Shown: positions 10,470 through 58,254, counted from the first letter of the stretch. The stretch is 64,000 nucleotides of DNA from Rhodoferax sp. (GCA_043738115.1 JAYSZJ010000036.1:23996-87995), one strand, 5' to 3'. Notes: generated by a model not told the origin, from the sequence alone. A program made the numbers and translations.

Positions 10470-11669
10470 TCACTTCGCAGACGAAGCGCTAGCCTGCGCG
10501 GCAACAGCCTGTGCAGCGCTTGCAGCGGGTGCTATAGAACCCATAGTACTAGATGCAACAACCACGGGGGCTGCAGCCACTTTTTGCTTGTACAGAGTCA
10601 CCTTCTCACCGGGTGCCAACACGTGCACACCGGCGGACACCACCTGCATGCCAGGCTGTAGTCCGGAAGCGATGACAACCTCATTGCCATCCGCAGTTGC
10701 AATCTGGACAGGGTGCAACTTGACCGTCATCGTGTTGGTATCCAGCAACCACACGGCAGACGTCTTGCCGTCCTGGCGCAGGGCACTGGTGGGCAACTTG
10801 ATGACCTGCACATTGCTGCGGTCAAAGGCCTGGGGAATGACGGACACCGTGGTCCCCAAAGCCAGCGCATCCTTGGCGTCCAAGGCTTCCAGTCCAACCT
10901 TGACAGTGAAGGTGCGGGTGATGGGGTCGGCACTCGCCGCTACTTCACGCACCACGCCCTTGAAGGACGTCTTGCCAGCCCAGGCCCGCACTTCCACGCT
11001 GGAGCCGGCCTTGATCATGGCAACCTTGTCTTCCGGCACCGCAAACACCACATCGCGCGGTCCGTCCTGCGCGATGCGCAATACCGGCGTGCCGGCAGCT
11101 ACCACCTGGCCGGGCTCGGCCTCGACCGCCGTGATCACGCCGGAAGTATCGGCCACCAGGGTCGTGTAAGCGGCCTGGTTACCCTGCCCCCTGGACTGGG
11201 CCTGGGCCTGGTCCAGTTGCGCTTGGGCGGCTTTGAGCGCGGCATCGCGGCGCTCCAGCTCGGCGCCACTGATGAAATTCTGGTCCCGCAATTCCTTGAA
11301 GCGCTTGTAATCGGCGGCGGCAAGATCCCGGTTGGTCAGCGCGGCAGCCACTTGGGCTTTCCCGGCCTGGGCGGCCAACTGGTAATCCTGCGGGTCCAGC
11401 TGCGCAAGCACATCACCCGCCTTGACCCGCTGACCCAGCTCTGCCTGGCGGCGCACCATCTTGCCGGCGACACGGAAGCCCAGCCTGGATTCGACACGCG
11501 CCCGCACCTCACCCGCAAATTCGGCACCCGAGTGCATGTTGTCGATGCCGACCGTCAGCACCTTGACCGAGCGTATCGGCGCTTCAGGTGGGGCGGGTTT
11601 GGAGCAGGCGCTGAGCAACAATGTGGCTGCGGCAAGCGCCAGCACGGTGGGGAGTAATTTGGAAGGCAT
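10470..11669 (-). CDS. RND periplasmic adaptor (MFP) lipoprotein; C-terminal tail partly encoded by the 63-nt repeat
   Basis: Lipobox LLLSAC, lipoyl/alpha-hairpin pattern, adjacent to the permease. Confidence 0.93.
   Translation of the reverse strand: MPSKLLPTVLALAAATLLLSACSKPAPPEAPIRSVKVLTVGIDNMHSGAEFAGEVRARVESRLGFRVAGKMVRRQAELGQRVKAGDVLAQLDPQDYQLAAQAGKAQVAAALTNRDLAAADYKRFKELRDQNFISGAELERRDAALKAAQAQLDQAQAQSRGQGNQAAYTTLVADTSGVITAVEAEPGQVVAAGTPVLRIAQDGPRDVVFAVPEDKVAMIKAGSSVEVRAWAGKTSFKGVVREVAASADPITRTFTVKVGLEALDAKDALALGTTVSVIPQAFDRSNVQVIKLPTSALRQDGKTSAVWLLDTNTMTVKLHPVQIATADGNEVVIASGLQPGMQVVSAGVHVLAPGEKVTLYKQKVAAAPVVVASSTMGSIAPAASAAQAVAAQASASSAK
10530..10592 (-). repeat. 63-nt in-frame repeat, copy in the MFP gene (encodes YKQKVAAAPVVVASSTMGSIA)
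   Basis: Ungapped 37/63 match to the aceE copy, keeping AGCCCCCGT and the terminal ATAGCA. Confidence 0.65.
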
Positions 11670-11708
11670 GGCGGGACCGTAAAAGGGTTAAGACAACAAA
11701 ATCTCGTT

Positions 11709-11730
11709 TAATGACCGGATGGTTAGTAAT
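11709..11730. promoter_or_regulatory. Imperfect palindrome (TGACC-GGAT-GGTTA) upstream of the MFP gene, possible TetR-type operator
   Basis: Lies in the AT-rich intergenic region 5' of the efflux operon. No cognate regulator gene nearby. Confidence 0.3.
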
Positions 11731-11813
11731 TTAATCTAACTACGAATTCCTGTCAACCACTTTGCTGCACTGCAACCTAACGCTCCCTCCGCCGGCCCTA
11801 AGCCCGACGGCGC

Positions 11814-14800
11814 TCAGTCGTAGGCGATCACCGCTTTTCCCTGGTCGGCCTGGGCACGCCATCCCGCCAAAGCCGCGTCGCTTGGGTAGAAGCGCGCGTT
11901 CTCGCCCAATTGCAGCTCGGCGCTAGCGCCGCTGCACAAGGCGTCACCAGCCGCTTCTGCGGCCCCTTGTTCCGCACCGTCGATGACACGCTGCACCGCC
12001 AGCCGCACGGCCAATCCGCGTACCAGCTCACCCTGCTCGGTCTGCTCGCGTTTGGCGGGAAATTCGCGCACCAAACGGGCAACATCCGGGCCGGAACTGG
12101 ATCCCGCCGCATTCACCGCCACCCGCAGGTATTTGCCGAAGCGGCAGCGCGCCTGCTCCAAGTCCCATACCTGGGTAATGGTGAGCTGTTTGCCGCCGGA
12201 GAAACGGTCATCGCGCACCTTGCCCATGACGATGATCAGTTCGTCGTCCTTGAACAGATGTTTGTTGGCATTGATGAGTTCTTCCTCAGCCCGCGCATCG
12301 ATCATCGCGGACTTGTCGTCCAGCTTGAACAGCGCCAGCTTGCCGCGCTGGCCGTTGATGACACGGAAATCGGTGACGATGCCCGCCAGCAACTGCGGCT
12401 CACGCGTGTCGATCAGTTCCTCGATCGGACGTTTGGCAAAACGGCGCACCTCCAGCGTCACTTCGTCAAACAAATGGCCTGACAGGTAGAAGCCTACGGC
12501 CGTCTTCTCGTACGTCAGCCGCTCTTTGATGCCCCAGGGCATCACGTCCACCAATTCGGGTTCTTGCGTGCTGGAGCCATGGTCGTCTTCACCGCCCATG
12601 TCGAACAGGCCGTGTTGGTTGGCGTTGGCCGCACTGGCGGCCGCAAAGTCAAAAGCCCGGTCTATGGACGCGGACAGGGCTGCACGGTTGAGTTGCAATG
12701 TATCGAAGGCACCAGCCTTGATCAGCGCGTCCACGCAACGCTTGTTCAGGCGACTGCGGTCCACACGGCGGGCAAAGTCAAACAGGCTGGTGAATGGGCC
12801 GTCTTCGCCCGTGGGGCCTTTGCCTTCACGCGCCGCCACAATGGCCTCAATTGCCTGCTGGCCCGTGCCTTTGATGGCGCCCAGACCGTAGCGAATTTCC
12901 TTGTTGGAGATGGGCTCAAAGCGGTGGCGGCCCCGGTTGATGTTCGGCGGCTCAAAGGACAGGCCCATCTTCTCGGCGTCTTCAAACAACACCTTGAGCT
13001 TGTCGGTGTCGTCCATTTCCACCGTCATATTGGCGCAGAAGAACTCGGCCGTGTAGTGGACCTTGATCCAGCCCGTGTGGTAAGCCAGGAGCGAGTAGGC
13101 AGCAGCGTGCGACTTGTTGAAGCCGTAGCCTGCAAACTTCTCCATCAAGTCGAAAACTTCGTCGGCTTTTTCTTCTGTGATGTCGTTCTTGGCGGCACCC
13201 GCGCGGAAGATGCTGCGGTGCTCGGCCATCTCCTCGGCCTTCTTCTTGCCCATGGCCCGGCGCAACATGTCGGCGCCGCCCAGTGAATAGCCGCCCAGGA
13301 TCTGCGCGGTCTGCATCACCTGCTCCTGGTAGACCATGATGCCGTAGGTCTCGCTCAGCATCTCGGCCACCAGCGGATGCGGGTACTCGATGACCTCGCG
13401 CCCGTGTTTGCGCGCCACAAAGCTGGGGATCAGGTCCATGGGGCCGGGGCGGTACAGCGCATTCAGCGCAATCAGGTCTTCCAGGCGCGACGGTTTGGCA
13501 TCCTTCAGCATGCGCTGCATGCCGGTACTTTCAAACTGGAATACGGCTTCGGTTTTTCCGTCCGAGAAAAGTTTGTAGACCTTGGTATCGTCCAGCGGCA
13601 GGTTCTCGTACGCAAACTTCTCCTGGCCCGGGTGGCGCTGCATGATGAACTCGCGCGCGATCTCCAGGATGGTCAGCGTGGCCAGGCCCAAGAAGTCAAA
13701 CTTGACCAGGCCAATAGCCTCCACGTCGTCCTTGTCGTACTGGCTAACCGCCGATTCGCTACCGGGCTGCTGGTACAGCGGGCAGAAATCGGTCAGCTTG
13801 CCAGGCGCAATCAATACACCCCCGGCGTGCATACCGATATTGCGGGTCATGCCCTCGAGCTTGCGGGCCATCTCCAGCAGCGTCTTGACGTCTTCTTCCT
13901 TGGCTTCGCGCTCGGCCAATATCGGCTCGGCTTCCGAGGCATACACGTACTTGTCGTTTTTCTTGCCGTCGGTAGGTGGCAGTTGCAGCGTGACGTTGGT
14001 GCCCGGCTTGTTGGGGATGAGTTTGCTGATGCCGTCGCAAAAGGTGTAACTCATGTCCAGCACACGGCCCACATCACGGATCACGCCGCGCGCGGCCATG
14101 GTACCGAAGGTGGCGATCTGGCTCACGGCGTCTTTGCCGTATTTGTCTTTGACGTAGTCGATGACCAAGTTGCGGTTGGTCTGGCAGAAGTCGATATCGA
14201 AGTCGGGCATGGATACCCGCTCGGGGTTCAAAAACCGCTCGAACAGCAACTTGTAACGGATAGGGTCCAAGTCGGTGATCTTCAGCGCATAGGCCACCAA
14301 CGAGCCGGCACCGGAGCCCCGCCCCGGCCCCACCGGGCAGCCGTTGTTTTTTGCCCAATTGATGAAGTCCCCCACGATCAGGAAGTAGCCGGGGAAACCC
14401 ATCTTCAAAATGGTGCCAATCTCGAACTCCAGCCGCTCCACATACGCGGGCATCTGTGCTTCGCGCTCGGCGTCATTCGGGTACAGGTGCGCCATGCGCT
14501 CCTTCAGACCTTCGTGTGATGCGTAGCGGAAATACTCTTCCGGCGTCATGCGCTGGCCGTTGACCAGGGGTGTCGGGAACTCGGGTAGATAGTTTTTGCC
14601 CAGCACCAAGGTCAGACTGCAGCGTTTGGCGATCTCCAGCGTGTTCGCCACGGCGGACGGGATATCGGCAAACAGCGCCTGCATCTGCGCGGCGGACTTG
14701 AAATACTGCTCGCGGGTGAACTTGCGCACGCGCTTGGCATTGCCCAGGATTTCGCCATCGGCAATACACACACGGGCCTCGTGGGCCTCAAAATCTTCCG

Positions 14801-15410
14801 CGGTGGTGAACTGCACCGGGTGCGTGGCCACCACCGGCAGGCTGATGCGGGCGGCCAACTGCACGGTGGCAATGACATGGGCTTCGTCATCGGTGCGACC
14901 GGCACGCTGCAACTCCAGGTAAAAGCGGTGCGGAAACAGGCCGCCCAGTTGCAGCGCCACTTCGCGCGCACGGGCTTCATCACCCTGCACCAGCGCCTGC
15001 CCGACAGGCCCCGCTTGTGCGCCTGAGAGCGCAATCAGACCTTCATTCAACTCCTGCAACCACGCCAGCTTGATAACGGCCTGGTTTTTGACAATATTTT
15101 TTGTGTAGCCCCGTGCCAGTAGCTCCGACAGGTTCAAATAACCCTGCTTGTTCTGCACCAGCAACACCATGCGTGACAAGGCTGTGGCGTCCCCTCCCAG
15201 GCCCTCCAGAAATATCTCAACACCAATGATGGGTTTGGTGCCCTTGGCGCGCGCCTGTTTGTAAAACTTGATGGCGCCAAACAGGTTACTCAGGTCGGTG
15301 ATGGCCAGTGCAGGCTGGCCATCGGCCACCGCCGCAGCCACCACGTCGTCGATTCGGTTGGTTCCATCAACGACGGAAAATTCGGTGTGCAGGCGCAGGT
15401 GTACAAACAT
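11814..15410 (-). CDS. dnaE: DNA polymerase III alpha subunit
   Basis: PHP domain HLRLHTEFS, GRGSGAGS, SMPDFDIDF, YGFNKSH. Confidence 0.98.
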   Translation of the reverse strand: MFVHLRLHTEFSVVDGTNRIDDVVAAAVADGQPALAITDLSNLFGAIKFYKQARAKGTKPIIGVEIFLEGLGGDATALSRMVLLVQNKQGYLNLSELLARGYTKNIVKNQAVIKLAWLQELNEGLIALSGAQAGPVGQALVQGDEARAREVALQLGGLFPHRFYLELQRAGRTDDEAHVIATVQLAARISLPVVATHPVQFTTAEDFEAHEARVCIADGEILGNAKRVRKFTREQYFKSAAQMQALFADIPSAVANTLEIAKRCSLTLVLGKNYLPEFPTPLVNGQRMTPEEYFRYASHEGLKERMAHLYPNDAEREAQMPAYVERLEFEIGTILKMGFPGYFLIVGDFINWAKNNGCPVGPGRGSGAGSLVAYALKITDLDPIRYKLLFERFLNPERVSMPDFDIDFCQTNRNLVIDYVKDKYGKDAVSQIATFGTMAARGVIRDVGRVLDMSYTFCDGISKLIPNKPGTNVTLQLPPTDGKKNDKYVYASEAEPILAEREAKEEDVKTLLEMARKLEGMTRNIGMHAGGVLIAPGKLTDFCPLYQQPGSESAVSQYDKDDVEAIGLVKFDFLGLATLTILEIAREFIMQRHPGQEKFAYENLPLDDTKVYKLFSDGKTEAVFQFESTGMQRMLKDAKPSRLEDLIALNALYRPGPMDLIPSFVARKHGREVIEYPHPLVAEMLSETYGIMVYQEQVMQTAQILGGYSLGGADMLRRAMGKKKAEEMAEHRSIFRAGAAKNDITEEKADEVFDLMEKFAGYGFNKSHAAAYSLLAYHTGWIKVHYTAEFFCANMTVEMDDTDKLKVLFEDAEKMGLSFEPPNINRGRHRFEPISNKEIRYGLGAIKGTGQQAIEAIVAAREGKGPTGEDGPFTSLFDFARRVDRSRLNKRCVDALIKAGAFDTLQLNRAALSASIDRAFDFAAASAANANQHGLFDMGGEDDHGSSTQEPELVDVMPWGIKERLTYEKTAVGFYLSGHLFDEVTLEVRRFAKRPIEELIDTREPQLLAGIVTDFRVINGQRGKLALFKLDDKSAMIDARAEEELINANKHLFKDDELIIVMGKVRDDRFSGGKQLTITQVWDLEQARCRFGKYLRVAVNAAGSSSGPDVARLVREFPAKREQTEQGELVRGLAVRLAVQRVIDGAEQGAAEAAGDALCSGASAELQLGENARFYPSDAALAGWRAQADQGKAVIAYD

Positions 15411-15518
15411 CCAAGGATTGTAGGTTTGAAACCGCGAACAGCGGCCTATTGCGGCCCCTATTCACCCCTTGCTTTTCTTTGCATTTACCTATTGTTCGGG
15501 CACAGCCAGGAGCCAGCC

Positions 15519-15725
15519 ATGCCCAACCCTACGCCCCCCCAGTACGAACTCCGTTTCCAGTCCCTGTTCCAAAGCGGGCGGGCATTTTCATTCCCTTGCG
15601 ACAGCGAAGGGCATGTGGACCTGAACAGCCTGGGCGACCGAGTGCGCGAGAGTTATCTGTATGCACGCGCGGTTGTGGGCAGGGAACTTGCGGCACCGGC
15701 GATACAGCCCAGCGCCCTGCACTGA
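15519..15725 (+). CDS. Small hypothetical protein (68 aa)
   Basis: SD AGGAG then ATG at 15519; MPNPTPPQYELRFQSLFQSGRAFSFPCDSEGHVDL...YLYARAVVGRE. Confidence 0.7.
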   Translation: MPNPTPPQYELRFQSLFQSGRAFSFPCDSEGHVDLNSLGDRVRESYLYARAVVGRELAAPAIQPSALH

Positions 15726-15751
15726 GCTGGCCTGTGGCCCACCCGCCGGTA

Positions 15752-16315
15752 TCAGGCCGTTACGCTGGCGGCCTTGGCAGCCAGCGCGGCAATACGCACA
15801 CCAAACAGGCGCCCGGTTTCCAGATCACCAGCGTTCATTTCGGCACCGCTGGCATCCCCCGGGGTCTGCGCCATAGGGCCAGCACTGGAAGCCAGATAGT
15901 TCACATCGCTGCGTTGCGAAGCCTTGGTGTTGTTGTAGTTCAGGCCCGTGCCCGCCCACAAGCCGCCATGCTGCATGGCAAGTGTCATGAAGTAGTGCAG
16001 CGTGGAATGCTTGTCGCCATTGACATTCGCACTGGCAGTGAAGCCCCCAAAGATTTTGTCCTTCCAGCTCTGGCTGTACCAGGGCTTGCTGCTGGCGTCG
16101 GCAAATTTTTTGAACTGCCAGCTGACGCTGCCCATGTAGGTGGGCGAGCCAAAAATGATGGCGTCGGCTTCGGCCAGCGCCTCCCACGCGCCGGCAGGCA
16201 GGTTGCCGTCGGCATCGATGGCGATCAGTTCGGCATTGGCGCCCTGTGCCACCGATTGCGCCAAGCGCTGGGTGTGGCCATAACCCGAGTGAAAAACCAC
16301 GACTACTTTTGTCAT
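15752..16315 (-). CDS. WrbA-like flavodoxin / NAD(P)H:quinone oxidoreductase
   Basis: HSGYGHT FMN loop, IFGSPTYMGS. Confidence 0.92.
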   Translation of the reverse strand: MTKVVVVFHSGYGHTQRLAQSVAQGANAELIAIDADGNLPAGAWEALAEADAIIFGSPTYMGSVSWQFKKFADASSKPWYSQSWKDKIFGGFTASANVNGDKHSTLHYFMTLAMQHGGLWAGTGLNYNNTKASQRSDVNYLASSAGPMAQTPGDASGAEMNAGDLETGRLFGVRIAALAAKAASVTA

Positions 16316-16354
16316 TTTTGCATTCCTCTTTTCTAAACCTTGTGTTGCAGACCT

Positions 16355-17056
16355 TCAGGCCTGCAGATCAAAAAACAAGACTTCCGCATCCTTGGCCTGG
16401 TCCAGGCTGACATGGGCTTCGTTTTCCAGCAACGCCGCATCACCACCGCTGAGCGCCACACCATTAACTGATACGGAGCCCCGCACAATGTGTACGTAAG
16501 CCTTGCGCTTGGGGTCCATGGCCAACGAGGCCGTCTGTGCACCATCCAACAAGCCACTGTACAGGCGGGCATCGGCATGGATCAGCACAGATTCATTAGC
16601 ACCGTCCGGCGATGCCACCAGGCGCAATACCCCCTGCTTCTCCGCATCGCTGAATGCCTTTTGTTCGTAACTCGGCGCAATGCCGGTCACATTCGGCTCG
16701 ATCCAGATTTGCAGGAAATGCGTGGTGTCGTTAGGCGCATGGTTGAACTCGCTGTGCTGCACACCGCGCCCCGCACTCATGCGCTGCACGTCACCGGGCG
16801 GAATGCCCTTGACGTTGCCCATGCTGTCCTTGTGTGCCAAGTTGCCGGACAACACATAACTGATGATTTCCATATCGCGGTGGCCATGCGTGCCAAAGCC
16901 GGTTCCGGGAGCGATGCGGTCTTCGTTGATGACGCGCAGGTTGCCCCAGCCCATGTGTTCGGGATCGTAATACCCCGCAAAGGAAAAGCTGTGGAAAGAC
17001 TTGAGCCAGCCATGGTCGGCATAACCCCGCTCAGATGATCTGCGTACGGTCAACAT
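16355..17056 (-). CDS. Pirin family protein (YhhW-like)
   Basis: HSFSFA, FGTHGHRDMEIISYV, GVQHSEFN. Confidence 0.94.
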   Translation of the reverse strand: MLTVRRSSERGYADHGWLKSFHSFSFAGYYDPEHMGWGNLRVINEDRIAPGTGFGTHGHRDMEIISYVLSGNLAHKDSMGNVKGIPPGDVQRMSAGRGVQHSEFNHAPNDTTHFLQIWIEPNVTGIAPSYEQKAFSDAEKQGVLRLVASPDGANESVLIHADARLYSGLLDGAQTASLAMDPKRKAYVHIVRGSVSVNGVALSGGDAALLENEAHVSLDQAKDAEVLFFDLQA

Positions 17057-17167
17057 AGTGTTTGTTCCTTTCGATGCTTTGAATTTTGCGGCTGGCAAGG
17101 CTTATTCCCATGCACGGTGATTGATGGCATCATTCAAATAATTTCAATTTGATCAGGTGGTAAGTTC

Positions 17168-18112
17168 ATGCAAACCGCACGCGATGTGCTGACACCGGAC
17201 GCCTTGGCCATGCTGCAGGCGATCGCGGACGCCGGCAGCTTTGCGGCGGCGGCCCGCGCCATGGGCATGGTGCCCAGCGCGCTGACCTACCGGGTGCGCC
17301 AGATTGAGGACGCGCTGGATGTGCTGCTGTACGACCGCAGTTCGCGCCAAGCCAAGCTCACCCGTGCTGGTGCCGAACTGCTGCGCGAAGGCGCGCGCCT
17401 GCTGCAAGAGATTGACGCCGTGGCCAACCGCGTCAAGCGCGTCGCCACCGGGTGGGAATCCCAGCTGACCATCGCCGTGGACACGGTGATTTCCAAAAAC
17501 ACGATGATGGAGCTGTGCGAAAGCTTCTTCAGCCTGAACCCGCCTACCCGCATCAAGCTGCGCGACGAAGCCCTGACGGGCACGCTGGAGGCACTCACCT
17601 CGGGTCAGGCCGATCTGGCCTTGGGGGTGGCACTGGACGCAGCCAATATGGCCGGCATACAGAGCAAACCGCTGGGCAGCATGGAGTTTGTGTATGTGGT
17701 TGCGCCGCACCATGCACTGGCAGATGCCGCCGAACCCTTGAGCGACACGCTGATCCAGCAACACCGCGCGGTCGCCGTAGCCGACTCCCTGCAACGCGGC
17801 GCGGGCCTGACGTTTGGCCTGCTCAGCGGTCAAGATGTGTTTACCGTCGGCACCATGCATGCCAAGCTGGATGCCCAGTTGCGTGGCCTGGGCGGCGGCT
17901 ACCTTCCGCGCTGCATGGCCGGCGCCTACATTGACACCGGTCGCCTGGTCGTAAAAAAGACCGAGCGCCCGCAGCGCCAGGTGCCGCTGAGTTTTGCATG
18001 GCGCGGTGCCACCGCATCCACCCAAGGGCGCGCCTTGCAATGGTGGCTGCAGCAGATGGAAAGCCCGATGACGCGGGCGGCGCTGCTGGAACAACACCGC
18101 GGAAATTCCTGA
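17168..18112 (+). CDS. LysR family regulator (YhaJ-like), divergent from pirin
   Basis: GSFAAAARAMGMVPSALTYRVRQIED helix-turn-helix. Confidence 0.94.
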   Translation: MQTARDVLTPDALAMLQAIADAGSFAAAARAMGMVPSALTYRVRQIEDALDVLLYDRSSRQAKLTRAGAELLREGARLLQEIDAVANRVKRVATGWESQLTIAVDTVISKNTMMELCESFFSLNPPTRIKLRDEALTGTLEALTSGQADLALGVALDAANMAGIQSKPLGSMEFVYVVAPHHALADAAEPLSDTLIQQHRAVAVADSLQRGAGLTFGLLSGQDVFTVGTMHAKLDAQLRGLGGGYLPRCMAGAYIDTGRLVVKKTERPQRQVPLSFAWRGATASTQGRALQWWLQQMESPMTRAALLEQHRGNS

Positions 18113-18172
18113 CCGCGCACGACTCACGTATAAACTGGCACAAACAACCCACAACTCTTGGAGACAACCCCC

Positions 18173-19216: not shown

Positions 19217-20229
19217 GTTCTGCGACGATTTATAGAGGTCGGTTCGCGCCCTCTCCCACCGGCCCGTTGCACGCGGGCTCACTGGTGGCTGCGCTGGCGA
19301 GTTGGCTGGATGCGCGCGCGCATGGCGGGCAGTGGCTGGTGCGTATCGAAGACGTGGACGTGCCGCGCACAGTGGCCGGCGCAACCGAACGCATATTGCA
19401 ACAGCTCAGCGACTGCGGACTCGTATCCGATGAAGCCGTGGTGCTGCAATCCACACGCTCTACGCTGTACCAGCAGGCGCTGGATCAACTGGTCACCGCC
19501 CAACGGGCCTACCCCTGCTGCTGCTCGCGCAAGGACATCACAACCGCCATCGCGGCCCAAGGTCGCAACCGTGAGCGGCACGGCGAGCTGGTCTACCCCG
19601 GCACCTGCAGGCTTGGCATGCGGGTTACCCCCCCTGCCGATGCTGCAGAGCCCAGTCCCAGAACGCCAGCATGGCGCTTCCTGACCGAAGCACTTAAGAC
19701 AAACAGACCTACAGCCCCCGTCGGACATTATGAGTTTGCTACTAAAACGATAGCAAATCACTGGACAAACTGGCAAGACAGATTGCTAGGTGCGCAGCAA
19801 CAGGACGTGGCACATACGGTAGGCGACTTCGTGCTCAAGCGCGCGGACGGCTGCGCCACCTACCAACTGGCCGTGGTGGTGGATGACGGCGCGCAAGGCA
19901 TCACCCATGTGGTGCGTGGTTTGGACCTGGCAGACAACACGGCCCGCCAGGTGCTGCTGCAGCAGGCACTGGGCCTGCCCATGCCGCAGTACCTGCACAC
20001 ACCGCTGGTGCTGGGTGCCAATGGCGAAAAACTTTCCAAACAAAACGGTGCCCAGGCGCTGGATACATCCACGCCAGCTGCCGCACTGGCCGCCCTGCAA
20101 CAGGCGGCCCGGGCGCTGGGTCTGCCCGCCAGCCCACATAGCACCGTCCCCCAGGCCCTGGCCGATTGGACAGCCGCCTGGCGCCAGACTTATCTTGCGA
20201 CGGCTATACGCATGGACCGCGCCACGTAG
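19213..20229 (+). CDS. gluQ: Glutamyl-Q tRNA(Asp) synthetase, with an internal repeat-derived insertion
   Basis: [37 protein letters not shown]; lacks the anticodon-binding domain. Confidence 0.93.
19693..19755 (+). repeat. 63-nt in-frame repeat, copy in gluQ (encodes [21 protein letters not shown])
   Basis: CTTAAG...AGCCCCCGTC...GCTACTAAAACGATAGCA; ungapped 39/63 match to the aceE copy. Confidence 0.75.
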
Positions 20230-35216: not shown

Positions 35217-35375
35217 CCCGCCTGTCACTGCGGCCCAAGGTATCTGTGCCCAACGTGCGCTAGCTGCGGTCCGTGGCGGCAATGAAGATGGGCAGCCTTG
35301 GCGACATCCTTAAGACATTCCTGGCTGTAGCCCCCGTCTATGCTATCTGAATAGCTACCAACTTTATAGCATTCC
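35215..35375 (-). pseudogene. aceE-like 3' fragment A, telescoped by internal deletions; contains the 63-nt repeat at 35309-35371
   Basis: 35225-35271 matches 55715-55761 at 39/47 nt; 35309-35371 matches 56041-56103 at 48/63; translates as CYKVGSYSDSIDGGYSQECLKDVAKAA...IAATDRS*RTLGTDTLGRSDRRA. Confidence 0.85.
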
Positions 35376-35654
35376 CAGCAAAACCGGCGAATAGCCTGTT
35401 GGATTTTCTTCTCCACGAAGCACTACGGTGCCCCCCAATTTTGGAAAACGGGTGCAGGCTCGGCATAGCCATGTCAGGGTTTTTTCACACACACCTGTCA
35501 CACAACCGTCAAATGAGGTGGTGACACTGCGCCACTCTCGGACGGTTTCAGGCGGTTTTCCGCACCACCGCCGTGTGATCGGTCGCACGATGCGTCGCCG
35601 CCGGCATTTGGGCCAATGGCAGCGCTGCCTATTTATTACTCACAAGGTTTTTTG

Positions 35655-38635: not shown

Positions 38636-38820
38636 CTGCGCCCTTGCCCACCTCAGTCAGAACGGCACCAGAGCCAAGCAACGCAATATCTTTAAGCGAA
38701 TGAGGACCATAGCCCCCGTCGGTGTTGCGTAAATTGCTACCAACTTTATAGCACCCATTCACTACATCGGCCTCTGCACCATCAGGCAGATCCGGACGGA
38801 CACAGAAATTATGGGTGACG
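38636..38820 (-). pseudogene. aceE-like fragment B; contains the 63-nt repeat at 38691-38753
   Basis: Translates as PDLPDGAEADVVNGCYKVGSNLRNTDGGYGPHSLKDIALLGSGAVLTEVGK versus aceE PDLPVGAEAEVVRGCYKFVSYSRSTDGGYGPNSLKEVTLMGSGAILTEVVK; core 55/63 nt identical. Confidence 0.92.
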
Positions 38821-46687: not shown

Positions 46688-46755
46688 GGTGCTGTGGGTG
46701 GTGAGAATGCTGGAGAGTGGCATTCTATGGAAAATTCCCGAACAGCCCAGTGTGC

Positions 46756-49511: not shown

Positions 49512-49656
49512 GGGAAGGCTCCGATTGCACTAGATCGTCGAAATTGTTGCAAAAGAGAGGCCCATGGGGCGGGGTTTTGTGACGAAACACCGGAATCGGG
49601 GTGTGGCCGGCGGCACACCCTGCAGGTGGCTTTATGCGCCACTGTGCAAGCACCAC

Positions 49657-50406: not shown

Positions 50407-50485
50407 GTCAGTTCCCAACAATTGGGCATCAGGTTAACCGCGGCGCGGCGATGTTTCAATTGGTATTGAAACTGGCACCTTCCGC

Positions 50486-51247: not shown

Positions 51248-51268
51248 GGTGTCTAAGAAGTATGCCGT

Positions 51269-52201
51269 TCAAACCGGCGAGACCGGAGACTCACCCGCAA
51301 GGTGGCGCCGCGCATTCTCTACGAAGCGATCCACCGAGGCCTGCACGGCCTCCGGCGACCAACCCGCCACATGCGGCGTGAGCACCACGGTGTCGAGGTC
51401 CAGCAGCTCGGCGGGCGGCGCGGGCTCACTCTCGTACACGTCCAGGCCTGCACCTGCCAGACGCCCCTCACGCAGCGCCTGCGCCAGAGCCGCGGTGTCG
51501 ATCACGCTGCCGCGTGCGATGTTGACCACGTAGCCACGCGGCCCCAAAGCATCCAGCACTTGAGCGTTGATGAGGTGCTGCGTGCCCTGGCCGCCGGGCG
51601 TGGCCACCAGCAAAAAATCCGCCCACGCGGCAAGCGACGCCACGTCATCAAAGTAACGGTAGGGCACGTCGGTGCGCGCGCTGCGGTTGTGGTAACCGAC
51701 CTGCAGGTCAAAGCCCAGCGCGCGGCGGGCGATCTTGCTGCCGATGGTGCCCAGGCCAATAATGCCCAGCCGTTTGTGCGAGACGTTGGGCGGCAACGGC
51801 AGGGACGTGCGCCACACACCCGCCCGAGTGGCAGCGTCGAGTTTGGGGATGCCGCGAACCGCGGCGATCAGCAGGCCAACAGCATGGTCCGCCACACAGT
51901 CGTCATTGGTGCCCGCCCCATTGGCCACCAAGATGCCACGTGCCTTGGCATACGCGACGGCGATGTTTTCGTAGCCCGCGCCCAGTGCACACACCAGTGT
52001 GAGTGTCGGCAACCCATCCATCTGCGCAGCCGTCAGGCCAACGGACCCTATGGTGAGCACCACCCGAACACCTGCACCGCGTGTGGCTATTGCCCCCGCG
52101 TGTCCCTGGGCATCTGGCGCATAGACCAGTTCGAAAGTCTCGGACAGTTGGGCGCGGTGTGCTTGTGAGAGAAATGAGAGGGCGAGCAGGACTGGTTTCA
52201 T
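51269..52201 (-). CDS. 2-hydroxyacid dehydrogenase
   Basis: GIIGLGTIG, VNIARG, LDVYESEP, TPHVAG. Confidence 0.93.
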   Translation of the reverse strand: MKPVLLALSFLSQAHRAQLSETFELVYAPDAQGHAGAIATRGAGVRVVLTIGSVGLTAAQMDGLPTLTLVCALGAGYENIAVAYAKARGILVANGAGTNDDCVADHAVGLLIAAVRGIPKLDAATRAGVWRTSLPLPPNVSHKRLGIIGLGTIGSKIARRALGFDLQVGYHNRSARTDVPYRYFDDVASLAAWADFLLVATPGGQGTQHLINAQVLDALGPRGYVVNIARGSVIDTAALAQALREGRLAGAGLDVYESEPAPPAELLDLDTVVLTPHVAGWSPEAVQASVDRFVENARRHLAGESPVSPV

Positions 52202-52297
52202 GGCGGACGCAAAGGGTATTCAGCGGAATCGTGGCCAAGTATGGCATTGGATGGGGCTGCAACGGCAATGATTGACGCAAACAAAATGCAGCAACGC

Positions 52298-52390
52298 CGC
52301 GCATACATTCCAGCACGGCGTACACCCAATCGGTGGCCGACATGATGGGCCGGTGCTGCCTTGGAATTGGCGCTGCCACTTCGGTCTGGA
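52298..52390 (-). pseudogene. aceE-like 3' fragment C (telescoped)
   Basis: 52313-52363 matches 55791-55842 at 42/52 positions (PIMSATDWVYAV versus PIIAATDYVCAV); 52370-52390 matches 55986-56012 with a short deletion. Confidence 0.8.
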
Positions 52391-52439
52391 CGCCGCCCCG
52401 ACCTACCTATAATTTTCCCCTTTTTTACTAGGAAAACCC

Positions 52440-53441
52440 ATGCGCCTCAGCCAAGCCGCCGCGTTCGTCGTCACGCTCAGTCTCGCGCCACTGGCCCAGG
52501 CGGCCAAGATGCCGGAGAAAGACTCCGCAAAAGGACAGGAACCGAGTCTGGTGACCCGCTTCCAGGGATCGAAGATGGTCGGCTACGCGGTCAAGGAATT
52601 CGACGAAGTCATGCTGCAGGCGGGCAAACGCACGCGAGACAAGGACGGTAAGGCGGTCGACAACCTGCTTCGTCTGGAAGGGAAATACACGCGCATGGCC
52701 TACAACTACGCGCCAGATCGTTCCTCGCTGGAAGTGATGCGCAATTACCAGGCGGCGCTCGACAAGGCCGGCCTGAAAACCCTGTTCGCCTGTGCGGGCG
52801 TGGAGTGCGGCTACGAGTTCGGCACCTATTTCCTCGATCACCGGCTCGGCAACAACTACATCGTCGGCTCGTCCGATTTCTGGTCCCCGTTCAATTACGG
52901 CCGCCTTGACATGCGCTATCTGCTGTCCAAGGGAACGCTGTCGAATGGCACCGTGGTGCATGCGGCGATCTATGTCGTCGATCCCAAGCAGGACAACAAC
53001 GGCGGCGTGTACGTGGAGGTGGTCGAGGCGAAAGCCATGGAAACGGACAAGGTCGCGGCAACGCTGAATGCGGGCGAGATGGCCAAGGGCATCGCGGCCG
53101 AGGGTAAAGTGGCCATCTACGGCGTCTACTTCGACACAGACAAGGCCGACATCAAACCGGAATCGAAAGCGGCGCTCGGCGAAATGGCCACGCTGCTGCA
53201 GAAAGACGCTGGACTCCAAGTGCACGTGGTCGGCCATACCGACAACCAGGGTTCGATGGCGCGCAATCTGGAGCTGTCTCAAAAGCGCGCCGAGTCCCTC
53301 GTCAAGGCATTGACCAGCGACTACAAGATCGATGGCAAACGCCTCAGCGCCAAAGGGATCGCCTCGTATGCACCGGTGGCAACCAACGACAACGAGGCCG
53401 GGCGCGGCCAGAACCGCCGCGTGGAGCTGGTCAAACAATAA
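52440..53441 (+). CDS. Secreted OmpA-family protein with a DUF4892-like N-terminal domain
   Basis: Signal peptide, SSLEVMRNY, VYFDTDK, VVGHTDN, NRRVELV. Confidence 0.88.
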   Translation: MRLSQAAAFVVTLSLAPLAQAAKMPEKDSAKGQEPSLVTRFQGSKMVGYAVKEFDEVMLQAGKRTRDKDGKAVDNLLRLEGKYTRMAYNYAPDRSSLEVMRNYQAALDKAGLKTLFACAGVECGYEFGTYFLDHRLGNNYIVGSSDFWSPFNYGRLDMRYLLSKGTLSNGTVVHAAIYVVDPKQDNNGGVYVEVVEAKAMETDKVAATLNAGEMAKGIAAEGKVAIYGVYFDTDKADIKPESKAALGEMATLLQKDAGLQVHVVGHTDNQGSMARNLELSQKRAESLVKALTSDYKIDGKRLSAKGIASYAPVATNDNEAGRGQNRRVELVKQ

Positions 53442-53462
53442 CAGCGTGCTGTTGTCCGGCCC

Positions 53463-53495
53463 CGCGTATCACGGAGGCCAAAACCATCTGTGCCC
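53463..53495 (-). pseudogene. aceE-like 3' fragment D
   Basis: 29/33 nt identical to 55709-55741 (GTDGFGLRDTR versus GTDGFGRSDTR). Confidence 0.75.
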
Positions 53496-53517
53496 CATTT
53501 CGGCCACACGGGGTGAC

Positions 53518-54360
53518 CTACACTTTGTTGCAGCGCACTCCACTTTCTGCGCCAAGATGCGTATCCAGGAACCCAATCACCTTTTCGGCATACGGGACCG
53601 GATGCGCTGCAAAGGCATGGGTATGTTCAGCGTCTGGGACTTGCCAGAATTCAGTGTGAGTCTTTTGTTGCAAGGTTCGCCACAACAACTTACCGTCTTC
53701 AACCGGGGTAAATTCGTCGGACTCGCCATAAATCAATAAGAGACTTGGACTGCCCACCAAATGTTCGGCGGCGTAGGTGGGGCGCAAGCTGCGCTCACCA
53801 GCGGGATAGATCAATTTGGAAAGCTGAATACCCCACTTCGGAACTGGATAGCGACGCCAAAAGTGCAACAGGGTCGGAAACGCCGACTCCAGAACGGCCG
53901 CCTTAAAAGGATGATGGGGCTGAGCCATGGCGCACACACTCATGGCCGCACCCATCGAGGCTCCCAGAACCGCTACTGACAAGTCCGGGTATCGCGCTTG
54001 CAAAGCCTGCCCGGCGGCCAGTACGTCCAATGGATAGTCCATTGTGGTCGAGGTGCTTTCACCAAAGCCATTCAAGTCAAACACCATCACGTGGTAGCCA
54101 GCCCGACGCAGCATTTCACTGTGCCCGTATTTCATCCAAAAGCCTTTGGCTACGACCCCCATGGGATGCGACATCAACACCGCTCCTTTGGCCGTCGCAG
54201 TGTGTGCAGGCCCTAGCAGGGCTGCAAGAGTAGCGCCGGATTCGCTTGCAATCTGCAATCGCTGCCAATGCTGCCGATCAGCCTGATCTGGCCAACGCCA
54301 GGGTTTGACAAAGCGACCAAAAAAAGGCTTTTTGAACAGTCGATAGGCGGTGTTTTTCAT
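53518..54360 (-). CDS. Alpha/beta hydrolase
   Basis: FDLNGFGES, GASMG, YGESD, HTHA. Confidence 0.85.
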   Translation of the reverse strand: MKNTAYRLFKKPFFGRFVKPWRWPDQADRQHWQRLQIASESGATLAALLGPAHTATAKGAVLMSHPMGVVAKGFWMKYGHSEMLRRAGYHVMVFDLNGFGESTSTTMDYPLDVLAAGQALQARYPDLSVAVLGASMGAAMSVCAMAQPHHPFKAAVLESAFPTLLHFWRRYPVPKWGIQLSKLIYPAGERSLRPTYAAEHLVGSPSLLLIYGESDEFTPVEDGKLLWRTLQQKTHTEFWQVPDAEHTHAFAAHPVPYAEKVIGFLDTHLGAESGVRCNKV

Positions 54361-54516
54361 TCAGGCAATCCTTGTCAATTTGAACGCTCAACGCCAAGAC
54401 TGACGCGGCGAGACCGTACTGTAGGCATTGACATCAACCACCGCCATAGGCAAAAATGACTAATTACATGCCATTTCTGCCACCCATCCTCGACCCCCAA
54501 GACCCGTATCTAAACC

Positions 54517-55542
54517 ATGCACATCACGGTATTGATGGCCGATCAATGTTCATCGACCAGCGTCGCCGCCACCCTTGAATTTTTTGAAACTGCCAATGTT
54601 CTGCATCGCCATGTCGGCACCAAAAATGTCCGTTCCGATGTGGAACATGCCAACTTGTTCAAAGTTGAAACTGCCTCGGTAGACGGCCGGGGCGTCATGT
54701 GCACCGGCGGACTTCAATTAACGCCGGATAAGGCCTTTGCCGACGTACTCAACCCGCAGCTCATCATTGTTCCGGGGTTCATGTTTAATATTCTGGGCGT
54801 CTTGCCATCGCTGAACAAGATGGTTCAATGGTTGCAACAGCAGCATCAACGGGGCAGTTATATCGCAAGCATGTGTACGGGAGCCTTCGTGACCGCCCAG
54901 GCGGGATTATTGGATGGTCGCTGCGCCACGACACACTGGGCTTTTAGTGAGCAGTTTGCTCAACGCTTCCCTCTGGTGAATTTGCAAACCGAGCGCACAG
55001 TGACCGAAGACGGCCAAATTTTGTGTTCCGGTGGATCCACCAGTGGCACGGATCTATTGCTGCATTTGATTCGAAAATTTGCATCGCCTCAATTGGCTGC
55101 CGAATGTGCAAAGAAATTACTGGTGGACATTTCTGCGCGCAGCCAGACGCCGTATGCCTGCACTACATTCAAGAAAAGTCACACTGACGCTGAGATTTTG
55201 AGAATTCAGATCTGGCTAGAAAATCGTATTGGCAATAACATCTCGATGGAGCAGGTGGCGGCCGATTTTGGTCTAAGCATGCGCAACTTTATCCGCCGAT
55301 TTAAAGCGGCCACCCACCAAACTCCTATCCTGTATCTGCAAAACCTGCGGATTGAAAAGGCCAAACATCTATTGGAGAGCAGCCAACTGGCGTTCGACCA
55401 AATTACCCTAAAGGTGGGTTATGAAGATGGGAATTCGTTTCGGCGCCTGTTCAAACAGAGGGTAGGTTTGGTTCCCAGCACTTACCGCAAGCGGTTTGAG
55501 AATGTTCGCAACGAACAGCCGTTAGGAAGTTCAACCCTCTGA
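54517..55542 (+). CDS. GlxA-type AraC regulator (DJ-1/PfpI plus HTH)
   Basis: SMCTGAF, ATTHW, RNFIRRFK, GYEDGNSFRRLFK. Confidence 0.92.
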   Translation: MHITVLMADQCSSTSVAATLEFFETANVLHRHVGTKNVRSDVEHANLFKVETASVDGRGVMCTGGLQLTPDKAFADVLNPQLIIVPGFMFNILGVLPSLNKMVQWLQQQHQRGSYIASMCTGAFVTAQAGLLDGRCATTHWAFSEQFAQRFPLVNLQTERTVTEDGQILCSGGSTSGTDLLLHLIRKFASPQLAAECAKKLLVDISARSQTPYACTTFKKSHTDAEILRIQIWLENRIGNNISMEQVAADFGLSMRNFIRRFKAATHQTPILYLQNLRIEKAKHLLESSQLAFDQITLKVGYEDGNSFRRLFKQRVGLVPSTYRKRFENVRNEQPLGSSTL

Positions 55543-55629
55543 AGCAATATTGCTCTGCAACGCTTTGGAATTATGAACCTGCAACATGCAACGTGAGGGC
55601 TTTAGCCCGTCGACCTGTGCCCACTCGGT

Positions 55630-58254
55630 TTACGGTTGCTGCAGCATGGTCAACGCCGCCCGCACAATACTCGCAGCATCCACACCAAAGTAACCCCGCA
55701 GCGCAGCACGTGTATCACTGCGGCCAAAACCATCCGTGCCCAGCGTGAGGTAGCTGCGGTCAGCTGGCAAGAAGGCGCGAACAGTTTCCGGCACGGCGCA
55801 GACGTAGTCGGTGGCGGCGATGATGGGGCCGGCGCTGCCTTGCAACTGCTGCTCAATAAACGGCACGGGGGCCGATGCATCTCCGGCCAATTGGCGTTGC
55901 AGGCTGTCGCGGCCATCACGGGCCAGCTCGCTCCAGCTGGTGACGCTGTACACGGTCACGTCTACGCCCTGCTCCGCCAACAACTGCGCTGCCTTGACCA
56001 CTTCGGTCAGGATTGCTCCAGAGCCCATCAGCGTAACCTCCTTAAGCGAATTAGGGCCATAGCCCCCGTCGGTGCTGCGTGAATAGCTAACAAATTTATA
56101 GCATCCCCGAACCACCTCAGCCTCTGCCCCTACCGGCAGATCGGGCTGGGCGTAGTTCTCGTTCATCAGCGTGACGTAGTAAAAAACGTCTTTCTGCTCG
56201 ATCAACATTTCACGCATGCCGTGGTCGATGATGACGGCCATTTCACCGGCAAAGGCCGGGTCGTAGGCCTTGCAGTTGGGGATGGTGGCCGCTACCAAAT
56301 GGCTGCTGCCGTCCTGGTGTTGCAGGCCCTCGCCACCCAGAGTCGTGCGGCCCGACGTAGCGCCCAGCAGGAAACCACGCGAGCGCTGGTCTGCGGCGGC
56401 CCAGATCGCATCACCCACGCGTTGGAAGCCGAACATGGAGTAATAGATGTAGAACGGCAGCATGGCCAAGCCGTGCACGCTGTAGCTGGTGGCGGCTGCC
56501 GTCCAGCTGGCGATGGCACCGGCCTCGGAGATGCCCTCTTCCAGGATTTGTCCGTCCATGGCTTCGCGGTAGCTGAGCACCGAGCCTATGTCTTCGGGCT
56601 CGTAACGCTGACCCACGCTTGAGTAAATGCCGACCTGCTTGAACAGATTGGCCATGCCAAAGGTGCGCGCCTCGTCAGCGACGATGGGCACAATGCGTGG
56701 CCCCAGTTCCTTGTCCTTCAGTAGATTGCCCAGCATGCGCACAAAGGCCATGGTCGTGGACATTTCTTTACCGGCCGCCGCCGTGGCAAAGGCGGCGTAG
56801 CTGCTTAGCGCGGGCACAGGCACTACATCGGCCACCGTCTCGCGGCGCGGCAGGTAGCCGCCGAGTTGCGTACGTTTGGTGTGCAGGTAGCGCATCTCTG
56901 CACTGTCGTCTGCGGGTTTGAAGAACTCGAGGTTGGCGGCCTGTGTATCGGTCAGTGGCAGGTTGAAGCGGTTGCGGAATTCGATCAGCGCGGCTTCATC
57001 CAGCTTCTTCTGGCTGTGCGTGGTCATCTTTCCCTGCCCGGCTTGGCCCATGCCATAACCCTTCTTGGTGTGCGCCAGGATGACGGTGGGCTGGCCGCTG
57101 TGCTGGGCGGCTGCGGCGTAGGCGGCGTGGATCTTGACGATGTCGTGGCCGCCGCGTTTGAGGCGGTCGATCTGCTCGTCGGTCATGCCCTGCGCCAGTT
57201 GCTTCAGCGCTTCGTTTTGGCCGAAGAAACTGTCGCGGTTGAAGCGACCATCCTTGGCGGCAAAAGTTTGCATCTGGCCGTCTACCGTGTTGGCAAAGGC
57301 CTGGACCAATGCGCCGGTGGTGTCGCGTGCAAACAGGCCGTCCCAATCGCTGCCCCATACCAGTTTGATGACGTTCCAGCCTGCGCCGCGGAACAATTTT
57401 TCCAGCTCGTCGATGATGCGGCCATTGCCACGCACCGGGCCGTCCAGGCGTTGCAGGTTGCAGTTGACGACCCAAACCAGGTTGTCCAGCTTCTCGCGGG
57501 AGGCCAGTGTCAACGCGCTCATGCTTTCGGGTTCGTCCATCTCGCCGTCACCAAACACACCCCACACTTTTCGCCCGGCGCAATCCAGCAACTGGCGGTG
57601 TGACAGGTAACGCATGAAGCGTGCGTGGTAGATGGAGCTGATAGGCCCAATGCCCATGGAGCCGGTGGGGAACTGCCAGAAGTCCGGCATCAGCCAGGGG
57701 TGGGGGTAGCTGGAGAGGCCGCGTGCGCCCTGGTCTGGCGCGGTGATCTCTTGGCGGTAATGGGCCAGGTCGGCTTCGTTCAAGCGCCCTTCCAGAAAGG
57801 CCCGTGCGTAAACACCCGGGGCGCTGTGCGGCTGGAAGAACACCAGGTCACCACCGCGCGAGCCTTTGAAGAAATGGTTGAAGCCCACCTCAAACAAATC
57901 CGCTGCACTGGCGTAGCTGGCGATGTGACCGCCCAGTTCGCCATAAGCGCCATTGGCACGCGCCACCATGGCCAGCGCGTTCCAGCGCATCAGCGATGCG
58001 AGCTTTTCTTCGATCGCCAGGTCACCCGGAAAGCTGCCCTGCTGGTCGACCGGGATCGTGTTGACATACGGCGTGGCCAGCTCGGGCGACCAACCTACCT
58101 GGGCCGTGTGCGCCAGGCGCACCAGTTGGTCCAGCACAAAACGCGCGCGTTCGGCACCATGGGTGGCAACAACGGACTGGAAGGCTTGTGTCCACTCGGC
58201 TGTTTCAGTGGGATCAGTGTCGACCGGGGGTGCGGGAATGTGGGAGGTATTCAT
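55630..58254 (-). CDS. Homodimeric 2-oxoacid dehydrogenase E1 (AceE/MdeB-like), stand-alone
   Basis: GGHIAS, FQPHSAPG, FPTGSMG, GDGEMDE..S ThDP motif, NCNLQRLDG, GEGLQH, LGTDGFGRSD. Confidence 0.93.
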   Translation of the reverse strand: MNTSHIPAPPVDTDPTETAEWTQAFQSVVATHGAERARFVLDQLVRLAHTAQVGWSPELATPYVNTIPVDQQGSFPGDLAIEEKLASLMRWNALAMVARANGAYGELGGHIASYASAADLFEVGFNHFFKGSRGGDLVFFQPHSAPGVYARAFLEGRLNEADLAHYRQEITAPDQGARGLSSYPHPWLMPDFWQFPTGSMGIGPISSIYHARFMRYLSHRQLLDCAGRKVWGVFGDGEMDEPESMSALTLASREKLDNLVWVVNCNLQRLDGPVRGNGRIIDELEKLFRGAGWNVIKLVWGSDWDGLFARDTTGALVQAFANTVDGQMQTFAAKDGRFNRDSFFGQNEALKQLAQGMTDEQIDRLKRGGHDIVKIHAAYAAAAQHSGQPTVILAHTKKGYGMGQAGQGKMTTHSQKKLDEAALIEFRNRFNLPLTDTQAANLEFFKPADDSAEMRYLHTKRTQLGGYLPRRETVADVVPVPALSSYAAFATAAAGKEMSTTMAFVRMLGNLLKDKELGPRIVPIVADEARTFGMANLFKQVGIYSSVGQRYEPEDIGSVLSYREAMDGQILEEGISEAGAIASWTAAATSYSVHGLAMLPFYIYYSMFGFQRVGDAIWAAADQRSRGFLLGATSGRTTLGGEGLQHQDGSSHLVAATIPNCKAYDPAFAGEMAVIIDHGMREMLIEQKDVFYYVTLMNENYAQPDLPVGAEAEVVRGCYKFVSYSRSTDGGYGPNSLKEVTLMGSGAILTEVVKAAQLLAEQGVDVTVYSVTSWSELARDGRDSLQRQLAGDASAPVPFIEQQLQGSAGPIIAATDYVCAVPETVRAFLPADRSYLTLGTDGFGRSDTRAALRGYFGVDAASIVRAALTMLQQP
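56041..56103 (+). repeat. 63-nt in-frame repeat, copy in the aceE-like gene, read in the reverse orientation (CYKFVSYSRSTDGGYGPNSLK)
   Basis: CTTAAGCGAATTAGGGCCATAGCCCCCGTCGGTGCTGCGTGAATAGCTAACAAATTTATAGCA. Confidence 0.75.

Follow-up and report, generated by a model that had tools for sequence, protein, structure and literature searches.

A dispersed motif of about 64 bp in genes and spacers of a Rhodoferax genome, possibly an old DNA recognition signal of Comamonadaceae

A 64,000-nucleotide stretch of DNA from Rhodoferax sp. (GCA_043738115.1, JAYSZJ010000036.1:23996-87995), called the window below, contains five copies of a short AT-rich repeat, three of them within unrelated functional genes. 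An earlier note, made from the sequence of the window, had described them as a 63-nt unit inserted in frame and had likened the unit to MITEs (miniature inverted-repeat transposable elements), repetitive extragenic palindromes (REPs), and Rickettsia palindromic elements (RPEs). The five copies belong to a family dispersed through the whole genome; only a set of short islands within each copy is conserved, copies hold their positions between species, and many of those in genes are written over native codons without a change in length and against the codon bias of their hosts. The results are consistent with the five copies being an old, vertically kept, ~64-bp double-stranded DNA recognition signal specific to this betaproteobacterial family (of the Comamonadaceae type), a reading in which we place about even confidence.

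The window was scanned with a leave-contig-out profile built from 305 copies, none of them from the window's contig, with E-values calculated for a 10-Mb search space. Exactly five copies were found (E = 1e-11 to 7e-7), each no more than 3 nt from the position that the earlier note had assigned to it. The rest of the window contained no profile match below E = 1, and 20 block-shuffled windows gave none. Aligned in one orientation, the five copies share a unit of ~64-67 nt with invariant TGCTA..TAG, GACGGGGGCT, and CTT segments. The repeat had thus been recognized correctly and its length of 63 nt had not, the register being exactly 64 nt in 311 of the 392 full-length copies of the family. The features named as common to the five copies (the CTTAAG end, the TAGCCCCCGT core, and the GCTA..TAGCA dyad) are conserved islands of that family, and Pfam agreed with the proposed identities of the three host genes, an HlyD-type membrane fusion protein (MFP), a GluQ-type class I synthetase paralogue, and an AceE-like E1. 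The copies are also AT-rich, as had been claimed, averaging 46% GC in a genome of 60% GC; the GC content at third codon positions is 0.40 in the copies versus 0.77 in the rest of the same genes, against the codon bias.

A genome-wide profile scan, which the earlier note had suggested, revealed a dispersed family of approximately 600 copies in this genome (G000; 5.0 Mb in 152 contigs), with more in its relatives. The search was seeded with the five copies and gave 244 matches at E ≤ 1e-3 and 604 after one iteration, the best E-values reaching 1e-16. Information in the profile is concentrated in islands at G6 C7 T8 A9, T19 A20 G21 C22, A32, and C40-A48 (CGGGGGCTA), with further islands at G51, C53, T57-T59, C62, and A65; the positions between them are AT-biased and otherwise free. 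The layout can be written as TTGCTAy-N7-rTAGC, one A, ACGGGGGCTA, G.C, TTT, and C..A(A), in which a GC-rich core lies between AT-rich tracts. The dyad, previously taken for a hairpin, turned out to be no more than a conserved sequence of 4-5 bp, GCTA(y)/(r)TAGC. Because its pair 10-18 shows no covariation (the frequencies equal the expectation under independence) and the predicted folds of the copies are no better than those of shuffled sequences, a hairpin is unsupported. A hairpin or RNA element was ruled out on the basis of the fold energies, the lack of covariation and of any Rfam match, and an orientation indifferent to transcription. No terminal inverted repeats are present in the profile, whose ends (TTGCTA.. 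and ..CTTAA) are not complementary and whose sole dyad is internal. Target-site duplications, which the earlier note had proposed to look for, were not found at any boundary offset in 309 copies (no enrichment of flanking k-mers, k = 3-8). Inverted pairs or clusters were likewise not seen, with only 7 inter-copy gaps below 500 nt versus 35 expected.

The positional stability of the copies was examined in the closest species found (G035; 93% amino acid identity in LolD, ~83% DNA identity, 276 kb compared). For all 24 G000 copies with mappable flanks, G035 has a copy at the orthologous place with span differences of at most 6 nt, and 25 of the 26 G035 copies have a partner in G000. In the 13 full-length pairs, the island columns are ~90-100% identical and the variable columns 30-70%. 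For the wider distribution we used a strict pattern, CTA-N9-TAGC-N17-CGGGGGCTA, which undercounts divergent versions of the motif. It occurs in 29 of the 61 species of the genus, with 0 to 246 copies per genome (a reversed-pattern control gave 0), and in 16 of the 150 genera of the family, each represented by one genome, with at least 12 copies in four; none of the 196 genomes from 60 other families in the rest of the order contains it. Each rich genome has its own near-invariant segment from TAGC to the core, for example TGCTTGCGCA..ATTCTA in G055 and AAACTATGACCATTTG in G135, and we refer to these versions as dialects. The combination of a free loop with a near-invariant segment points to position-specific constraint rather than to recent amplification of a master copy. 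Most of 30 genus members have the motif at the lolD site, each in its own version, and in some low-load genomes it is weak or absent. The site score at lolD was dismissed as an indicator of genome load, the trend being weak, confounded by phylogeny, and dependent on a strict pattern that undercounts dialects.

In several genes, the motif was compared with orthologues from five complete or near-complete motif-free species of the same genus (G005, G011, G037, G059, and G064), motif-free meaning zero strict-pattern matches and zero score at three tested sites, a definition that divergent dialects could escape. For alr and lolD, G000 is collinear with all five species without any insertion or deletion, and the motif scores 34-38 bits in G000 versus 0 in all five. 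The sequence CAG GCC GGC GAC ACG of alr is CCG ACG GGG GCT AGC in G000 (QAGDT to PTGAS), and in lolD of G000 the residues L-P-R are replaced by V-A-P and A-K by A-S (GCTAGC); the amino acid changes in both genes are those that create the islands. The aroA gene of G000 is equal in length to that of G037 and G059, is 5 aa longer than Vibrio AroA (PDB 3NVS), and has the dyad placed over the universal SSASYF motif. Since alr, lolD, and aroA are collinear with their motif-free same-genus orthologues, we conclude that the copies in them arose by substitution, not by insertion. Separately, we noted a fusion of EPSP synthase and cytidylate kinase in a 668-aa open reading frame (ORF) of G000 (C45:21514-23520, locus L194; Pfam EPSP_synthase at 17-435 and Cytidylate_kin at 449-657), with orthologous frames of 684-718 aa in five other species of the genus.

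A broader comparison used an outgroup from another family (G023; 50% GC), of which 2.0 Mb (55% of the genome) was compared and contained no significant motif match. An orthologue in G023 was available for 92 in-gene copies, 40 of which have alignable flanks; the lengths compared include the copy and 12 flanking residues at either end, and they were set beside 805 control windows. A net gain of at least 6 aa was observed for 21 of the 40 copies versus 23 of the 805 controls (3%), and a net length within ±2 aa for 12 of the 40 versus 80% of the controls, with a net gain of 21 aa in a single copy. Copies without a change in length nonetheless match all 64 nt of the motif (E = 1e-3 to 1e-9). In the intermediate copies, the core (..PTGATG..) is typically extra and the GCTA..TAGC part lies over native residues, as in a CCA-adding-type enzyme in which the conserved TINA(M)A is re-spelled as ACT ATT AAT TCC ATA GCG.

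The earlier note had held that orthologues lacking the repeat but equal in length would speak against insertion. Motif-free orthologues of equal length exist for alr, lolD, and aroA; the three window genes differ in that GluQ is longer by the full 21 aa, the AceE-like protein by part of that length (7-9 aa), and the MFP has an extended tail. The GluQ copy is absent from the orthologues of G004 and G005. Three residues stand at the site in G004, and G000 has a net gain of 21 aa; in nucleotides, the difference from G004 is a clean +63 nt in G000 and +81 nt in G001, which is close to G004, at the same point. Recognizable or decayed copies occupy the site in other genus members (L002, L003, L005, L007, and L010), and the segment comprises ~48 residues in G000 versus 17-20 in members of other families. 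The extra segment is unaligned and falls between two blocks that match Escherichia coli YadB (PDB 1NZJ). In the MFP, the copy lies just upstream of the resistance-nodulation-division pump gene and forms residues 360-380, in the C-terminal tail. After the conserved GVHVL.PGQKVT.Y, this tail is 27-44 residues long in species with the motif and 8-25 residues long and Ala-rich in motif-free species, and the tails of motif-bearing genus members exceed those of motif-free members by 20-30 aa. The AceE-like protein, which is 76-84% identical to Simplicispira, Acidovorax, Limnohabitans, Polaromonas, and Rhodoferax records, was aligned with 80 orthologues. Its copy is read in a minority frame and lies in the linker between the middle and C-terminal domains; the first seven codons (CYKFVSY) overlie a native G-x-Y-R-F-x-x-Y/F that is kept in motif-free homologues, and the net gain is ~7-9 aa (+9 aa versus the outgroup). 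Orthologues in Rhodoferax, Polaromonas, Acidovorax, and Simplicispira records likewise have a recognizable DNA motif at this position.

The remaining two copies in the window, at 35309 and 38691, are not independent of the AceE-like one because homology to the 3' region of the aceE-like gene extends past the repeat. Judged by their blastn alignments, they are segmental duplicates of aceE-like DNA with the gene's own copy carried along, so the five copies do not represent five independent events. Positions of all of these features are listed in Table 1.

Table 1. Motif copies, host genes, and aceE-like fragments in the window (positions counted from the first nucleotide of the 64,000-nt stretch)
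Feature	Position	Strand	Evidence or remarks
Motif copy, MFP tail	10529..10593	+	E = 6.8e-7; read on the minus strand as YKQKVAAAPVVVASSTMGSIA
Motif copy, gluQ	19688..19758	-	E = 1.1e-9; read on the plus strand, GluQ residues 161-181
Motif copy, AceE-like gene	56039..56105	-	E = 9.8e-12; read as CYKFVSYSRSTDGGYGPNSLK
Motif copy in telescoped aceE-like fragment	35307..35373	-	E = 9.6e-10
Motif copy in 160-nt aceE-like fragment	38687..38753	-	E = 3e-9
HlyD-type MFP gene, 399 aa	10470..11669	-	Pfam HlyD_D23, HlyD_3
GluQ-type glutamyl-Q tRNA(Asp) synthetase gene, 338 aa	19213..20229	+	Pfam tRNA-synt_1c; PDB 1nzj, E = 2e-54
AceE-like homodimeric 2-oxoacid dehydrogenase E1 gene, 874 aa	55630..58254	-	Pfam PDH_E1_M, Transketolase_C_1, Transketolase_N
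aceE-like fragment, 160 nt	38636..38795	-	blastn: 78% to 55984-56145 over 162 nt
Telescoped aceE-like fragment	35225..35376	-	blastn: 35225-35271 = 55715-55761; 35304-35376 = 56036-56108

Four co-oriented fragments of the 3' part of the aceE-like gene (55709-56145) occur in the window, at 35225-35376, 38636-38795, 52308-52369, and 53463-53495. They punctuate a lower-GC accessory stretch (49-56% GC around 40-46 kb), and Pfam identified no integrase or transposase among the ten ORFs between them. At the Rfam gathering score, the window yielded only four tRNA genes (RF00005), on the minus strand at 517-910 and 7110-7193, and the motif copies were unmatched.

For placement in the genome we relied on crude calls of genes, with 4,116 ORFs selected by their codon score and 88% of the sequence coding. 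By these calls, 229 copies are wholly within genes, 149 cross a gene end, and 245 lie between genes; for a 64-mer placed at random, the expected share inside genes is 82%. Most sites follow a stop codon by a few bases or occupy tolerant segments of genes. In co-directional spacers, the upstream stop codon is a median of 18 nt away. Stop codons directly adjoin the unit at both of its ends, and the stop is often contributed by the CTTAAG end itself. Copies are rarer in divergent spacers (0.38 per kb versus 0.57-0.68 elsewhere). Orientation is indifferent to transcription, with 127 same and 102 opposite in genes and 62:81 in co-directional spacers, and is mildly linked to the sign of the local GC skew (355:268). 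Sites occur approximately once per 7-8 kb and are more evenly spaced than under random placement, the coefficient of variation of the gaps being 0.82 versus 0.98 ± 0.04. Density per 5 kb is 0.17-0.26 below 57% GC and 0.74-0.97 at 60% GC or above, that is, 3-4 times lower in low-GC windows, from which it follows that probable recently acquired DNA is poor in copies. One 5-kb window of the genome with less than 50% GC holds three copies, contrary to this trend.

Reading in frame within ORFs, as claimed for the window, applies to about a third of the copies genome-wide, with one main frame per orientation. This frame is used by 44 of the 57 full in-gene copies in the same orientation as the gene and by 40 of the 43 in the opposite one. 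Two peptides recur, ..IA....(P)TGA(T/S)GQF.. (also written as ..IA....stGAtGqf..) and ..N.P.APV....A.K.IA.. (also written as ..N.pvAPV....AIk.VA). The earlier description of the unit as free of stop codons in both directions needs to be narrowed to one main frame per strand, in which ~75% of the in-gene copies and ~45% of the intergenic copies are open.

The genome was also examined for machinery that might act on the motif. G000 has one Y1_Tnp gene (C148:37639-38340, locus L093/L257), IS200-like and resembling the REP-associated tyrosine transposases (RAYTs). It is flanked by a 26-nt inverted repeat, TAATTGGGGTCAGATTCCAATAAAAT, that is unlike the motif and has 3 copies in the genome. The gene is present as a single copy in 58 of the 61 genus genomes, motif-free ones included, and because of this conservation it looks domesticated. 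Of the 6 genomes examined, 5 have one degenerate motif copy at the 3' end of the gene, which is not far from the chance level for after-gene placement, ~1 gene in 15. The cognate transposase that the earlier note had thought worth seeking was therefore not recognized in this gene, which is present whatever the motif load and whose flanking repeat is both unrelated and rare; no parent transposase with matching ends was found among Y1_Tnp genes, other transposase families not having been searched. ComEC (PF03772), a component of DNA uptake, is encoded in 52 of the 61 genus genomes, again including motif-free ones. The ComEC/Rec2 family has no match in G047, a genome rated 99% complete with 36 strict copies, yet it occurs where the motif is missing; its distribution thus fails to follow that of the motif, and we rejected it as a proxy for an uptake signal.

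We suggest that the site, whose islands stay constant at fixed spacing while the positions between them drift, is recognized by a putative sequence-specific reader, probably a protein. A directional pressure on the DNA, either selection for sites or a bias in transmission or repair, would create and maintain the copies, which would not spread by present-day cut- or copy-and-paste transposition. Sites would then be maintained at the DNA level and be able to arise in place. Tolerant loops, linkers, and tails, as in the three window genes, may lengthen to absorb a site, and conserved segments, as in alr, lolD, and aroA, may absorb it by codon re-spelling at unchanged length. It is possible, although we put it forward only tentatively, that the motif represents an unrecognized kind of long (~64-bp) chromosomal signal with a lineage-specific, co-evolving putative reader and a machinery different from that of uptake signal sequences (USS), DNA uptake sequences (DUS), or Chi. 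Several points weigh against the recognition-signal reading. The reader and its function are things that we infer. Extra residues, 6-21 in number, accompany 21 of the 40 alignable in-gene copies versus 3% of controls, and GluQ shows a clean indel of 63 nt (G000) or 81 nt (G001) relative to G004. Because of this excess of length gains and the clean indel, some insertion-like process appears to operate or to have operated, and an insertion-like route, now or in the past, could account for both as well. The conservation analysis draws on 13 orthologous pairs in 276 kb of one relative, the gene calls by ORF and codon score are crude, and the motif-free class could include divergent dialects.

The closest competitor is a selfish, non-autonomous mobile repeat resembling RPEs, MITEs, or REPs and their hairpin-forming doublets (REPINs), which would have spread long ago by in-frame insertion, possibly by means of the conserved single-copy RAYT-like Y1 transposase, and whose present copies would be relics; we consider it unlikely, if still deserving of serious attention. 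The whole-unit presence or absence of the GluQ copy (+63 nt in G000 and +81 nt in G001 versus G004) fits such insertion, as does the lengthening by 6 aa or more seen for 21 of 40 in-gene copies versus 3% of controls, but a gain of 21 aa is seen in only 1 of the 40, and the length-neutral copies of alr, lolD, and aroA keep native residues between the islands, which insertion cannot yield. Relics, moreover, would not be expected to retain the islands while losing the remainder. Location at gene 3' ends and depletion in divergent spacers are shared with REPs (Di Nocera et al. 2013, PMC3733652), and genome-specific variants are shared with REPIN populations, but the copies are more evenly spaced than random and are not clustered, they show no gain or loss relative to G035, and they have no terminal inverted repeats, target-site duplications, or long hairpin. 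As for the transposase, the presence of the RAYT-like gene in 58 of 61 genus genomes and of the motif at its 3' end in 5 of 6 speaks for a connection; the gene occurs equally in motif-free species, however, and its 26-nt repeat is unrelated, with 3 copies. A purely insertional selfish repeat leaves unexplained the length-neutral copies with native residues, the island-only conservation, the even spacing, and the lack of turnover. What survives of the MITE/RPE interpretation in the earlier note is the dispersed family, its in-frame copies, and the longer window genes; terminal inverted repeats, target duplications, a matching transposase of the Y1_Tnp type, and turnover do not.

A DNA uptake signal of the USS/DUS type, in which the competence machinery would prefer DNA with the motif and biased uptake and recombination would spread it, shares much with the observations: codons overwritten in preferred frames without a change in length, even spacing, location just after genes, a GC-rich core with AT-rich flanks, lineage-specific dialects, and restriction to one family. 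We nevertheless judge it improbable: ComEC was looked for without success in G047 yet occurs in species lacking the motif, a USS has about half the length of the motif and is ~8 times denser (the motif occurs 1 per 8 kb), and no paper in the literature searched ties uptake sequences to Comamonadaceae. Convergence at the protein level or chance, by which a favored peptide or low-complexity coding sequence and not a DNA element would explain the matches, is scarcely credible. The two recurrent peptides of the in-gene copies are what it would predict, but the 245 intergenic copies already contradict it, and so do the occurrence in both orientations and several frames, the motif E-values down to 1e-16 with no matches in shuffled windows, and the strong violation of codon bias.

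If a 64-bp signal can be imposed on hundreds of sites, core regions of alanine racemase, EPSP synthase, and LolD among them, and persist there over long periods, it would exert a strong influence on how genomes and proteins evolve in a large bacterial family of ecological importance. Were the motif a long signal as suggested above, its effect on the genome would be comparable to that of USS/DUS or Chi, with codons of conserved enzymes re-spelled genome-wide. The range of 0 to ~250 strict copies within one genus amounts to a clean natural experiment, so that phylogenetic profiling should be able to recover a gene for the reader and the cost to proteins should be measurable. In the annotation of Comamonadaceae proteins, the motif accounts for unusual AT-rich stretches, short loops confined to a lineage, and C-terminal extensions.

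We found no formal description of the motif family in the literature, with the possible exception of a partial sighting (Tong et al. 2017, PMC5217627). That study names ATAGCT(N)22CAAAAG of Polaromonas naphthalenivorans CJ2 a potential novel motif; 81% of its 125 copies are intergenic and 14% fall in genes, close to the ends of genes. It is reported there as statistics only, with no full unit, in-gene analysis, or function (PMC5217627). Matches to the pattern in the family have the form ATAGCTGCTTGCGC-loop-GCGCAAAAG and occur in several other genera at no more than 8 per genome, with one in G000. The left half, ATAGCTGCTTGCGC, is common to the dialect of this genus, whereas the right half, ..GCGCAAAAG, differs from ACGGGGGCTA. 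By sequence, the Polaromonas motif is probably a sister dialect that differs in its right half. A second repeat known from Comamonadaceae genomes and from Bordetella, BRE, is like the motif in that some copies lie inside coding sequences, and is 75-91 bp long, 69% GC, and often tandem (Hot et al. 2011, PMC3110155). Identity with BRE was rejected, as length, GC content, tandem arrangement, and core all differ; neither CGGGGGCTA nor its complement occurs in the supplementary sequence lists of that paper (PMC3110155).

Among the established systems, RPEs are 100-150-bp palindromic insertions. The motif resembles them as a dispersed short repeat found in frame in many unrelated functional genes, where it adds peptides at tolerant sites (GluQ, +21 aa), and as an old element that is no longer visibly mobile. 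It is unlike them in being 64 bp long with only a 4-5-bp dyad and no long stem-loop, and in that many in-gene copies are length-neutral re-spellings in which the islands are conserved and the remainder drifts. The motif family is unlike MITEs in having no terminal inverted repeats, no target duplications, and, among Y1_Tnp genes, no matching transposase. REPs adjoin the 3' ends of genes (Di Nocera et al. 2013, PMC3733652); Comamonadaceae are covered neither in that survey nor in RepRanger 2025. The motif shares with the REP/REPIN-RAYT system its vertical, long-lived character, its location just after genes, sometimes supplying the stop codon and occasionally within genes, its lineage-specific sequence variants, and a single-copy RAYT-like gene in the genus. 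It differs in being AT-rich, without a GC-rich stem-loop, the GTAG/CGTC tag arrangement, inverted dimers, or clusters, and in its RAYT-like gene, which is bracketed by a 26-nt inverted repeat of unrelated sequence and is not tied to the presence of the motif. The USS of Pasteurellaceae and the DUS of Neisseriaceae are 10-32 bp long and occur ~1 per kb, with overwritten codons in preferred frames, even spacing, after-gene location, a GC-rich core with AT tracts, and family-restricted dialects. The Rhodoferax motif departs from them in its length of 64 bp, its density of 1 per 8 kb, and a ComEC distribution that does not track it. Like them, it is an over-represented motif written over coding sequence without a change in length, in preferred frames and at even spacing, often located after genes and divided into family-restricted dialects.

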